From Nitrospinota bacterium (lineage in GTDB: Bacteria; UBA8248): a stretch of 64,000 nt of DNA. The position numbers and the translations under genes are program-made. Below the pieces are notes generated by a model that saw only the letters and a program-made list of their open reading frames with translations, did not search any database and was not told the origin of the DNA. Positions within the stretch are counted from its first letter, which is position 1. Each line of letters opens with the position of its first letter. Shown piece by piece: positions 57,783-59,971 of this stretch. The stretch is taken from assembly GCA_030754595.1 (NCBI GenBank), contig JASLZZ010000056.1, positions 19,805 to 83,804 on the forward strand. Direction: 5' to 3'.

Positions 57783-57845
57783 GGGCCAGCCCGTCTATAA
57801 AACCCACCCGACCGAAAGACCTGCCAGCCGGGAGGGCAGTCAACA

Positions 57846-58232
57846 TTAACCCTCGATCATCGCCACCGCCTCGATTTCGACCAGGAACTTCGGGTTGGCG
57901 AGGGCCGCCTGGACCGTCGTCCGGGCCGGCTTATCGTTTCCAAAAAATTCGGCGTAGGCCTCGTTCATCCCGGCGAATTCGCCGATATCTGAAAGATAGA
58001 CCGTCGTCTTCATCACGTCGGCGACGGTGGCGCTCCCCTCCTCCAGAACGGCCTTAAGATTACGGAGCACCTGCCGCGTCTGGGCGGCAACGTCTCCCTC
58101 GCCGACGAGATTTCCCTCACCGTCCATCCCGACCTGGCCAGCGGTGAAAACGAAAGGTCCCCGCTTCGTTCCCGGGACATAGGGCGGCGAGGGCACACGC
58201 ATCGATGAGGGCTGAAGATTAATCTTGGGCAT
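57846..58232 (-). CDS. RidA family protein
   Basis: AGQV, KTTVYL, NEAYAEFF, PARTTV, VEIEA. Confidence 0.92.
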   Translation of the reverse strand: MPKINLQPSSMRVPSPPYVPGTKRGPFVFTAGQVGMDGEGNLVGEGDVAAQTRQVLRNLKAVLEEGSATVADVMKTTVYLSDIGEFAGMNEAYAEFFGNDKPARTTVQAALANPKFLVEIEAVAMIEG

Positions 58233-58277
58233 TTTGGATTCTCCCCTGGAAGATGGAAAGGAAAACGGCATCGCAAC

Positions 58278-58308
58278 AAAAAACCTCCGGCCTCCGGGAG
58301 GCCGGAGG
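58278..58308 (-). terminator. Rho-independent terminator closing the UGA-containing unit
   Basis: On the minus strand CCTCCGGCCTC-CCG-GAGGCCGGAGG followed by T6. Confidence 0.85.
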
Positions 58309-58324
58309 GGTATGTCTCAACCGC

Positions 58325-58498
58325 TCAAACCCTGACCAGTTTCCTCCGGACCCACCTGAAACCCTTCTGAACCAGAAGGAAGAGGAGTCCGCTCAGTCAG
58401 GTCGGACAATACTCCGGCTCGCTCCGGGGAGCGTTGGCCCGCTCCTCGGCCTGCTCCTCCCTCGCGGTTTCAGCTTTCTCTGCCGCCTGGGATTTCAC
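58325..58498 (-). CDS. Putative 57-aa selenopeptide (C-P-T-U), not in ORF track
   Basis: GGAGAG RBS and GTG; MKSQAAEKAETAREEQAEERANAPRSEPEYCPT-UGA(58397-58399)-LSGLLFLLVQKGFRWVRRKLVRV*; fills the gap between DUF971 and the terminator. Confidence 0.6.
58363..58379 (-). promoter_or_regulatory. Candidate bacterial SECIS hairpin
   Basis: CCUUCUG-GUU-CAGAAGG starting 17 nt after the UGA; G-U at the start of the loop. Confidence 0.55.
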
Positions 58499-58510
58499 GC
58501 GCGTCTCTCC

Positions 58511-58858
58511 CTAAACCTCTTCCCCGGCCTCGTACCGGTTTCCGGGATCGATGGACCTGAGGTAATCGAACGAGTAGATGCCGTCCGCGCAGCCCGCCTG
58601 CCAGGTGATGCTCAGGGCGTAGCGGCCCACCATCGAAGCGTCCCCAAGTTCGGCGGGCCCCAGCTCGCCCGATACGACGCGGAGCGAATTGTTCTCCATC
58701 TCGGCCCGCTTCTCACGGCAGTTGGCGCAGGGGCACATGGCCGCCAGATAATCGAAACCGTAAACGCTCTTGCCGCCCCCCGCCCACTCGATCCGAAGCT
58801 CGCGGGCGGTCTTGTCCATCGTTAAATCGACGGGGCGGCGCCCCTCGGCGGTCGTCAT
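58511..58858 (-). CDS. DUF971 (gamma-butyrobetaine hydroxylase N-terminal-like) protein
   Basis: LRIEW, CPCANC, VGRYAL.ITW, GIYSFDYL. Confidence 0.85.
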   Translation of the reverse strand: MTTAEGRRPVDLTMDKTARELRIEWAGGGKSVYGFDYLAAMCPCANCREKRAEMENNSLRVVSGELGPAELGDASMVGRYALSITWQAGCADGIYSFDYLRSIDPGNRYEAGEEV

Positions 58859-58891
58859 TATTCCCCACTCTACTAAGGACGGAAAAAAGAT

Positions 58892-59545
58892 TTATTTCCC
58901 GCCGTATTGTTTATATTTCACCGATGCGGCGGTGCCCCGCTTCGCGGACTCGGGCGTTTTCAGCTCGAGCACATAGGGGCGATCGACCGAGGCGGCGCGG
59001 ACGGCATCGAGGAGTCCCTCGTCGTCCTGCCCCTCCCAATCTCCTTCCTCGAGCTTCACGAAAACCGGATTGCCGCTCTCGAAGAGCAGGGTCGGCACCC
59101 CGAAAACGCCGTATTCGCCCTCGGCCTCTTCGTGATCCGCGGCGAGGAGCGGAATGCCCGCGCCGTTTTTCATGTCCTCCTCCCAGCGCTCCACGTCGAG
59201 CCCCACCTCGATAGCAACGTCCCGGAGGACGAGCTGGTTGGTGATGTCCTTTCCATCCCGATGCTTCGCCCGGTGGAGGACGACATGATATTTGGCGAAC
59301 TGGCCTTCGCCCTGGAGGGCGGCGCATTTCGAGGCCTCGAGCGAGGGGATGTCGCGGCTGGCCATGCGCTTATCTTCCCATGCCTTCCAGTCCTCACCGC
59401 GCGCGCTGGCGAAATTCACCTGCTCAAGTACAAACGACTTGTAGTCCACGCTGAGATCCTTGTTCTTTTCCTGAAGACGAGTGAGCCACTCCGTGGCCCG
59501 GTATGCGTAGGGTCAGACGTAGCAATTCCACATCGTGATATTCAT
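58892..59545 (-). CDS. Putative selenoprotein, DsbA/FrnE-like thioredoxin fold (217 aa, UGA at codon 11)
   Basis: AGGGG RBS, ATG 59545: MNITMWNCYV-UGA(59513-59515)-PYAYRATEWL... in frame with ORF 58892-59449; cis-Pro motif GVFGVPT. Confidence 0.8.
59483..59499 (-). promoter_or_regulatory. Candidate bacterial SECIS hairpin
   Basis: GGGCCAC-GGA-GUGGCUC starting 13 nt after the UGA; G at the start of the loop. Confidence 0.6.
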
Positions 59546-59639
59546 GAAATGTCCCCTTTAATTGGCTGAATCCTGGATAACATGGCGTCTCCATGAATTA
59601 TCGCACAACCGCTTTCCCGCAAGAAACGAAACATCCCGC

Positions 59640-59668
59640 ATATACATAAATAATTTACTTATGTATAT
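59640..59668. promoter_or_regulatory. Perfect inverted repeat ATATACATAA-N9-TTATGTATAT (candidate operator) next to TTGACA at 59681
   Basis: 10-bp perfect arms in the A/T-rich divergent intergenic region. Confidence 0.55.
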
Positions 59669-59758
59669 TAAATTTTATACTTGACAGACTGTATCTTATT
59701 TGCAATATATATGAACGTACCAGTCAGGTTAAAATCATTATTTTGCAGGGGCAATGAC

Positions 59759-59971
59759 ATGAGCAAACTACAGGCAGTCGAATGCACGGAATGCGGTGAA
59801 TTCTCCCCCACGGACCATATAGGCCCCTTCGGCCCGGTTTGCGACAGGTGCCGTGACTGGGAGTTCCTGGCGGGAGGTCAATTACTCTCGATTCCTTCCC
59901 AACACATTGAAATAAAAAAGGAAATTCAATCCGCCACGCATCAAAAGCGTATTCTCGTTGCCCAGTCTTGA
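59759..59971 (+). CDS. Small CxxC...CxxC (Zn/Fe finger) protein
   Basis: MSKLQAVECTEC...VCDRC; AGGGG RBS; overlaps the hemD-like start. Confidence 0.55.
   Translation: MSKLQAVECTECGEFSPTDHIGPFGPVCDRCRDWEFLAGGQLLSIPSQHIEIKKEIQSATHQKRILVAQS

Follow-up and report, generated by a model that had tools for sequence, protein, structure and literature searches.

A probable selenocysteine-containing micro-protein encoded behind DsbA-like and DUF971 genes in the bacterial phylum UBA8248

We consider here a short open reading frame (ORF) on the minus strand of a 64,000-nucleotide (nt) stretch of DNA from a Nitrospinota bacterium (assembly GCA_030754595.1, contig JASLZZ010000056.1, positions 19,805 to 83,804), referred to as the window, within which all positions below are counted unless another locus is named. 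We believe, with a probability of roughly 0.8, that 58498-58325 is a real cistron, the third of an operon that also encodes a DsbA-like protein and a DUF971 protein, and that its internal UGA is read as selenocysteine (Sec). Judged from the comparison of sequences, it very probably represents a previously undescribed, Sec-only family of micro-selenoproteins restricted to one marine phylum. The initial annotation, made from the letters of the window, had described a ribosome-binding site and a GTG 12 nt after the DUF971 stop, 33 codons, a UGA and 23 further codons, a CCUUCUG/CAGAAGG hairpin with a GUU loop, and an ORF ending just before a terminator. All of these elements are present on the minus strand, the hairpin core at 58379-58363 and an 11-base-pair (bp) terminator-like stem with a T tail at 58308-58284. 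The parts of the ORF are as follows.

58325..58498, minus strand: proposed micro-selenoprotein ORF, consisting of GTG, 33 codons, Sec-UGA, 23 codons and TGA stop; product of 57 residues
58513-58511, minus strand: DUF971 stop codon TAG
58505..58512, minus strand: Shine-Dalgarno-like AGGGAGAG, 6 nt 5' of the GTG and overlapping the DUF971 stop codon
58498-58496, minus strand: GTG start, 12 nt past the DUF971 stop
58397..58399, minus strand: in-frame UGA, proposed Sec codon at residue 34, motif Cys-Pro-Thr-Sec
58328..58396, minus strand: predicted post-UGA coding tail of 23 codons, with a 9-residue hydrophobic patch followed by a cationic stretch with Trp; net charge +6
58362..58380, minus strand: hairpin resembling a selenocysteine insertion sequence (SECIS), 8-bp stem including a closing U-G pair, GUU loop, 16 nt past the UGA
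58379-58363, minus strand: core of that hairpin, CCUUCUG / GUU / CAGAAGG, without the U-G closing pair, 17 nt past the UGA
58327-58325, minus strand: second TGA, final stop of the ORF

The evidence that carries this reading comes from relatives of the ORF. With the translated ORF as a single-sequence query against six-frame translations of 60 other genomes, matches crossing exactly one in-frame TGA were obtained in 25 of them; the matches L050-L053 and all weaker rows (E of 0.06 or above) were without the motif and synteny and were dropped. In one of the dropped rows, G051, a TGA is present within unrelated sequence. A profile built from 25 members (alignment A1; locus L030, whose contig ends inside the tail, was excluded from alignments A1 and A2) was then run against 51 genomes of phylum UBA8248, and detected a single copy, interrupted by exactly one in-frame TGA, in 33 of them (E from 1.4e-11 to 2.6e-20), eight of these genomes being absent from the profile itself. 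Leaving aside the genome of the window, the matches fall into genera g1 (4 of 4 genomes), g9 (4/4), g8 (21/23), g5 (1/1) and g2 (1/1), with a further match in the single genome of g10, which belongs to a second family; no profile match was found in g4 (0/4), g7 (0/2), g3, g6, g11 or the seven genomes of family f4. The initial annotation had recommended a tBLASTn or HMM search of small ORFs behind DUF971 genes; the profile matches have UGA in each of the 33 genomes, and DUF971 lies directly 5' in 32 of 32 loci. Metagenomes add copies in 11 of the 80 loci fetched with an alignment of DUF971. Among DUF971 loci of other phyla, 0 of 39 had a DsbA-like neighbor or a match to the peptide profile, and the CxxU strings seen there are scattered chance matches.

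Conservation extends across the UGA in the manner of a coding sequence. The codon at the Sec position is TGA in all 32 genome loci and in all 11 metagenome copies, while the final stop is TAG in 16, TGA in 10 and TAA in five. In the profile alignment the Sec column and one Val are invariant, and Cys, Pro, Thr and Trp reach 90% conservation or more; the motif in relatives is (A/F)-C-P-T-U, with variants C-S-T-U and C-H-F-U and one W-P-T-U. The frame remains open for 21-34 codons past the UGA in 31 of 31 complete copies, its final stop stays at a constant position within genera, 21 or 23 codons past the UGA, and internal gaps in the post-UGA DNA alignment are of three or six columns only. Among the differing codons past the UGA, frame 0 has the largest synonymous share whichever of three groups is taken: 54/131 compared to 25/119 and 7/124 in the other two frames in group 1, 32/70 compared to 20/70 and 1/65 in group 2, and 308/875 compared to 181/935 and 90/832 in group 3. 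Between-genus BLOSUM62 scores similarly favor frame 0 both past the UGA (25.6 compared to 18.0 and 13.3) and before it (17.7 compared to 10.8 and 13.1), and this lead of frame 0, by synonymous share as by BLOSUM62, is clear yet moderate. Beyond the hairpin, codons of the Trp and Lys/Arg cluster vary (AAG, AGG, CGG, CGA, AAA) with the charge kept. The initial annotation had named codon-level conservation on both sides of the UGA as a check, and absence of the post-UGA frame from relatives as the result that would speak against a selenopeptide; frame 0 scores best on both sides by BLOSUM62 and past the UGA by synonymous share, the post-UGA frame is kept, and the host has the full Sec machinery (below).

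The 5' end of the ORF also behaves as that of a gene. Start codons in the relatives are ATG (12), GTG (12) or TTG (8), placed between -35 and +30 nt from the DUF971 stop, and in six loci the 4-nt ATGA/GTGA overlap with DUF971 is of the kind typical of coupled cistrons. Purine-rich runs precede the start codons in the relatives too. That the peptide might be a read-through extension of DUF971 is ruled out, the two frames being different in 10 of 32 loci.

The assembly that contains the window (3.55 Mb in 138 contigs) is equipped to decode UGA as Sec. Its tRNA-Sec reaches 73.6 bits (cut-off 47) and is called SeC with anticodon tca by ARAGORN; selB (364.5 bits), selA (551.8 bits) and selD (345 bits) are likewise above their curated cut-offs, and selB is above cut-off in 48 of the 51 genomes of the phylum. 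Global reassignment of TGA is ruled out, since TGA serves as an ordinary stop elsewhere in the window, where it ends 37 of the 99 open frames of at least 200 codons, and selA and selB of the host have no internal stops. The selD of the same genome (locus L019, contig C16) has one in-frame TGA of its own, within the motif G-G-U-G-S-K. The 51 genomes belong to the GTDB phylum UBA8248, whose metagenome-assembled genomes (MAGs) are mostly labelled "Nitrospinota"; related records are labelled Nitrospinota, Nitrospinaceae or 'Tectomicrobia', and the MAG ODZ_NOB7a has a DUF971 protein 96% identical to that of the window. The portion of PMC11373643 consulted assigns NOB7-10 to UBA8248 and describes it as lately split off from Nitrospinota as its own phylum. 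The excerpt of the BSepDB paper (PMC13326102) that we consulted assigns Nitrospinota-labelled MAGs to UBA8248 of the GTDB and counts 48-54 selenoprotein genes in them, which puts them among the ten richest bacteria.

A hairpin a short distance past the UGA is a further feature expected of a Sec codon. The best simple hairpin begins 13-17 nt past the UGA in 22 of 32 loci, and its mean energy is -9.5 kcal/mol compared to -5.6 kcal/mol for shuffled sequences. At this conserved position the stems have 5-9 bp and the loops 3-6 nt (for example GUU, GGUC, GGUCU, CGUG and CGUGGC), and the stem sequences vary by genus, as in UCCUUCUG/CAGAAGGG, CUCCUUCC/GGAAGGGG, UCUUCGCGC/GCGCGGGGG and UCCGCGC/GCGUGGG. 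RNAalifold returns five consensus pairs, two of which are changed on both sides (CG in 20 and UA in 10 sequences; GC in 16 and UA in 5). Paired cells amount to 91.3%; shuffles give 80.3 ± 1.6%, none of 500 attaining the observed value, and sliding the partners gives 37-76%. This shuffle control is generous and the significance overstated, the sequences being kin. A G and a T of the loop are invariant in the alignment, and loop G and U are contacted by SelB in Escherichia coli and Moorella. Two other in-frame UGAs of the genome of the window, those of selD and of the DsbA-like gene, are followed at 12-13 nt by hairpins of 5-7 bp with GGA loops, that of selD being GGUCC/GGA/GGACC, 12 nt 3' of its TGA. 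The hairpin is very probably an embedded SECIS and a putative SelB site. Part of the conservation of the tail is then imposed by the hairpin, because the invariant Val corresponds to a GUN codon inside the loop. The lower stem CUGAG/UUCAG that the initial annotation had considered possible does not hold as a general element: it could form in the window and in its two closest relatives, L025 and L026, and is impossible in L027, L028 and the other genera. In nine loci of g8 (L036, L039-L041, L045-L048 and L076) we also observed a second, more stable hairpin, GGCGGG / 6-nt loop / UCCGCC, 2-3 nt past the UGA.

The remaining features of the operon in the window are listed here.

59704..59732, minus strand: sigma-70-like promoter match 5' of the DsbA-like gene, in an AT-rich spacer, by consensus match alone
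58892..59545, minus strand: DsbA-like thioredoxin-fold selenoprotein gene, 217 residues, first gene of the operon; Sec-UGA at 59515-59513, C-Y-V-Sec-P
58511..58858, minus strand: DUF971 / GBBH-like_N gene, C-x-C-x-x-C and a distal Cys, immediately 5' of the peptide ORF and probably translationally coupled to it
58274..58308, minus strand: intrinsic-terminator-like stem-loop and T tail, 16 nt past the ORF stop, operon end; 9 of the 11 bp of the stem at 58308-58284 are G-C pairs

The linkage of the three genes is strict. The order DsbA-like, DUF971, peptide is syntenic in 26 of 26 loci, one of them truncated at a contig end, and DUF971 lies directly 5' of the peptide in 32 of 32; a conserved link to RidA, LeuC, or the divergent HemD-like or sulfite-reductase-like genes was dropped as those neighbors vary. 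The DsbA-like product (Pfam PF01323, 1.9e-17) starts at the ATG at 59545, upstream of the start of the 185-residue ORF listed earlier for this gene (58892-59449), and this places the TGA at 59515-59513 inside the protein, within W-N-C-Y-V-U-P-Y. A full-length match with one TGA is found in 49 of the 51 genomes, the fiftieth having a contig-end fragment only. Its CxxU-then-P motif lies outside both DsbA-like forms (UxxC and DxxUP) given in the table of PMC13188914. The DUF971 protein (Pfam PF06155, 3.1e-17) has C-P-C-A-N-C and a distal Cys in the window, the distal residue being His in family f2, and its structural relatives are PDB 3LUU, 2L6N and the N-domain of gamma-butyrobetaine dioxygenase; in the part of bioRxiv 10.1101/072470 that we consulted, DUF971 is called an iron-sulfur (Fe-S) cluster maintenance protein from mutant cofitness data. 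No signal peptide was found in the peptide, DsbA-like or DUF971 sequences. The module is presumably cytoplasmic, because neither partner has a signal peptide.

Two further observations concern the surroundings of the operon. An AT-rich spacer of ~410 nt (59546-59957) separates the DsbA-like gene from the divergent HemD-like gene and contains sigma-70-like matches on both strands, three compared to 0.5 expected. In one g8 genome, a second, partial DUF971-like stretch in two pieces with 61-70% identity lies ~900 nt 3' of the operon (L044 ~2387-2577, also L122).

The predicted product has 57 residues here and 46-71 in relatives. Its N-part, of 16-42 codons, is variable, mostly acidic or Pro-rich, with a net charge of -3 here and between -6 and +1 in relatives. 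It is followed after the Sec by a tail of 21-34 codons that encodes a hydrophobic patch and a Lys/Arg cluster, usually also a Trp, with a net charge of +6 (+3 to +7 in relatives). The hydrophobic core spans 9-11 residues, and no 19-residue stretch exceeds a Kyte-Doolittle mean of 0.99. This combination of conserved patch, Trp and positive charge is as compatible with an interfacial helix as with one that binds a partner. The Cys-x-x-Sec at the head of a helix-prone stretch is, as we presume, akin to the active-site geometry of thioredoxin folds.

Combining these elements, we propose the following scenario. Translation would begin at the GTG, coupled to termination of DUF971 translation. SelB carrying Sec-tRNA(Sec) would bind the hairpin 16-17 nt past the UGA, which presents G and U in a small loop, and Sec would be inserted. 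The ribosome would go on for 23 codons until the second UGA, which is without such a hairpin and would act as the stop just before the terminator. The resulting product would consist of a variable, mostly acidic N-part, a C-P-T-U center heading a short hydrophobic stretch, and a Trp-containing cationic tail. The C-x-x-U pair might cycle between selenol/thiol and selenylsulfide states as a minimal redox or chalcogen-transfer center, perhaps in concert with its neighbors, the DsbA-like C-x-x-U selenoprotein of the cytoplasm and the DUF971 protein rich in Cys, and the tail would keep the peptide attached to the inner side of the membrane or to either partner.

A number of points weigh against this scenario or against parts of it. 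The peptide is absent from two g8 genomes and from genera g7 and g4 though both neighbors are kept, and the gene is dispensable for those genomes because it is missing where both neighbors remain. The family is without a Cys form, and the Sec/Cys pairing looked for as a mark of selenoproteins is consequently lacking. On the coding side, open frames as long as 21 codons are no rarity in DNA of 61% G+C, and the frame-0 lead is of the moderate size noted above. On the side of the hairpin, covariation extends to only two of the five consensus pairs, and the fold of the window itself (-22.4 kcal/mol, z = -0.26) is matched or bettered by 80 of 200 shuffles. The hairpin of the window alone is not above chance, and therefore support for the hairpin comes from the relatives. 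In g8, the most stable simple hairpin is elsewhere in 10 of the 32 loci, nine times at 2-3 nt and once (L068) at 7 nt past the UGA; in those nine loci the rival hairpin overlaps and competes for the 5' arm (UCCGC) of the conserved-position hairpin, which there has only 5 bp and about -6.5 kcal/mol. RNA-library contigs from four runs (searched over 57800-59700) contain parts of RidA, DUF971 and the DsbA-like gene only and leave the peptide ORF uncovered, an outcome that is uninformative either way. As for the product, a transmembrane segment or tail anchor is rejected: the hydrophobic core of 9-11 residues compares with ~18 or more needed, and the 19-residue mean of 0.99 is too low. The initial annotation had pictured a membrane-associated micro-selenoprotein; the micro-selenoprotein stands, with its post-UGA frame kept and Sec machinery in the host, whereas membrane anchoring stays hypothetical given the short core, peripheral binding being conceivable. 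The selenium-dependent localization switch that it had also pictured is speculative. Amphipathicity is above that of shuffles in g1 and g9 and not in most g8 members. Finally, the function suggested above derives from the motif and the neighbors only.

The genomes without the peptide show different arrangements. In g7 nothing recognizable lies 3' of DUF971, and in g4 leuC follows DUF971 directly; in families f3 and f4 the DsbA-like gene has no adjoining DUF971. The contig of g6 stops ~120 nt past DUF971, and a fragment resembling the N-part is visible there. The two g8 genomes (L094 and L095) have the same unrelated gene, starting M-R-L-S-W-N-E-M-R, 3' of DUF971, which suggests that the peptide was replaced through an insertion.

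Turning to other explanations, the Sec reading could be right and the role different. A Cys-x-x-Sec pair is a strong ligand for soft metals. The peptide may, though we consider it unlikely, be a natural-product precursor or an exported peptide, or may bind and hand off Hg, Cu or Cd, instead of being a redox partner of its neighbors. That the peptide is small, and that its conserved core comes after a variable N-part resembling a leader, would suit a precursor; Se-containing precursors of ribosomally synthesized and post-translationally modified peptides (RiPPs) and C/SxxU mercury-transport selenoproteins are both among the known families in Table 1 of PMC13188914, and the sole NCBIfam match, below noise, is a RiPP peptide model. 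However, no maturase, protease or exporter is conserved alongside, the constant neighbors being only the DsbA-like and DUF971 genes; the peptide and both partners are without signal peptides; MerT, selenobacteriocin and all other Pfam and NCBIfam models fail to match; and a single Cys and a single Sec take the place of a Cys-rich core.

A bolder extension of the preferred reading, which we regard as a long shot, would make the ORF a selenium gauge with two outputs. With Sec-tRNA available, the 57-residue form would be made, its tail docking C-P-T-Sec at the membrane surface or on the partners, and without selenium a tail-less, Sec-less acidic peptide of 33 residues would arise, with another location or activity. 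Such a gauge, if true, would explain why no Cys version was found, as a Cys codon would keep the chemistry and destroy the switch, and the module would serve to tune Fe-S or redox maintenance to selenium in a marine phylum that is rich in selenoproteins and includes putative nitrite oxidizers.

It is also conceivable, if improbable, that the UGA is a plain stop ending a 33-residue peptide in Cys-Pro-Thr, and that the conserved 3' sequence is an RNA element of the 3' untranslated region, for example a hairpin with a stabilizing or regulatory role ahead of the terminator. TGA does serve as a normal stop here, the conserved hairpin does sit past the UGA, some of the conserved amino acids, among them the invariant Val (GUN), coincide with its loop, and the RNA contigs do not cover the peptide ORF. 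An RNA element alone, however, fits poorly with conservation that runs past the hairpin to the Trp and the Lys/Arg cluster, with codons varying under a kept charge, or with internal indels in multiples of three, the richness of frame 0 in synonymous changes, and final stops kept 21 or 23 codons out within genera. Nor does a plain stop fit a codon before the tail that is TGA in every copy and never TAA or TAG, when the final stop uses all three.

That there is no gene at all, the conservation deriving from a non-coding RNA or from the antisense plus-strand ORF at 58253-58825, is very improbable: a 190-codon plus-strand open frame does span the region and high-G+C DNA gives many chance ORFs, but that frame runs opposite to the DUF971 gene confirmed by Pfam, its translation over the matched stretch is interrupted by stops in 3 of 26 relatives (L032, L037 and L041), a start codon with a purine-rich run stands beside the DUF971 stop in 32 of 32 loci, six with ATGA/GTGA overlaps, and Rfam has no match in the window except for one tRNA. 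The plus-strand frame, antisense to DUF971 and the peptide ORF, looks like a shadow ORF of high-G+C DNA.

The Sec reading, which we continue to prefer, also accounts for the near absence of the family from databases. Pfam gave no match to the peptide at E up to 10, and NCBIfam release 20, searched to the same limit, gave only a noise match to the RiPP model mentioned above (E 0.29; 11.9 bits compared to a cut-off of 40); Rfam returned the one tRNA of the window and nothing else. Protein searches covered 5.77 billion clusters and 1.84 billion representatives (~15 billion proteins). The cluster search gave one match, P0002, and a full HMMER pass over the representatives gave P0002 and six long repetitive proteins that match merely in 5-10 short stretches. 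P0002 is identical to the translation of the metagenome locus L204 except for a W where the DNA has TGA, and is most likely a gene call that reads TGA as Trp. No Cys-form homolog was found in either search, and the CPTC homologs that the initial annotation had thought worth seeking are thus not to be had from them. The family is absent from protein databases save for one entry in ~15 billion proteins because gene callers halt at the UGA, and the stub of 33 codons that is left falls below the length they keep. Table 1 of PMC13188914, a 2026 review of prokaryotic selenoproteins, lists 119 families and no such peptide among them; none of the new selenoprotein families of Haft, modelled in NCBIfam according to the table of that review, matched the peptide; and BSepDB, by the part of its description consulted, was built from known families. 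We found no literature joining a selenoprotein with DUF971, or CPTU with selenocysteine.

If the proposed reading is right, it would add a selenoprotein family to the 2026 inventory of 119, and one whose members, of only 46 residues in one genus, rank with the smallest bacterial selenoproteins and have no Cys counterpart. The strict linkage would define a three-gene module with two Sec centers, and through this module one may approach how DUF971 works biochemically and how low-oxygen marine bacteria with putative nitrite-oxidizing capacity achieve redox or Fe-S protection. The ORF would, moreover, illustrate how peptide function and an embedded SECIS can together mold one coding sequence.

Lastly, we compare the proposed family with known systems. 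In the SECIS of E. coli fdhF, a hairpin shortly past the UGA exposes G and U in a small apical loop. The hairpins considered here are alike in having GGUC loops in L027 and L037 and loops starting GGUC in several other loci, whereas their spacing is ~5 nt longer, their stems have 5-9 bp with no bulged U evident, and binding by the SelB of this phylum is putative. SELENOK and SELENOS are very small eukaryotic selenoproteins in which one redox-active Sec is found together with a segment that binds membranes and a disordered region; their Sec is near the C-terminus, far from the N-terminal transmembrane helix, and their SECIS is in the 3' untranslated region. The peptide has no sequence relation to them, and its Sec abuts a hydrophobic stretch too short for a transmembrane helix. 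Selenobacteriocin or selenobiotic precursors (TIGR04081) are likewise short ribosomal peptides containing Sec, and adjoin a radical S-adenosylmethionine maturase. They have an SGUG motif and two Sec according to the table of PMC13188914, compared to one Sec in C-P-T-U here. Membership in this family was rejected, there being no NCBIfam match and no maturase among conserved neighbors that comprise only the DsbA-like and DUF971 genes; a MerT-type mercuric transport selenoprotein (PF02411) was rejected as well, given no Pfam match and the 19-residue hydropathy mean of 0.99.

Also comparable are the CC/Se motif family selenoprotein NF041239 and other small hypothetical families listed in the consulted part of PMC13188914, which are similarly small, uncharacterized, of CxxU type and defined by computation only; the peptide differs in matching none of those NCBIfam models, and in neighborhood and taxon. 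A further group comprises the bacterial CxxU/UxxC selenoproteins resembling thioredoxin, glutaredoxin, DsbA, AhpD or SelW (PMC13188914, Table 1). Membership in the thioredoxin/glutaredoxin/DsbA oxidoreductases themselves was rejected, as their fold needs ~80 or more residues compared to 46-71 here, no Pfam match was obtained and the motif type alone is common; the peptide is far too small for a thioredoxin fold, has no Pfam or NCBIfam model and no Cys form, and carries its hydrophobic and cationic tail straight after the Sec. The likeness lies instead in a UGA followed within ~15 nt by a small hairpin within the coding sequence, in a Cys three residues before the Sec, in a host with selA, selB, selC and selD, and, in the present case, in an operon shared with another CxxU selenoprotein.

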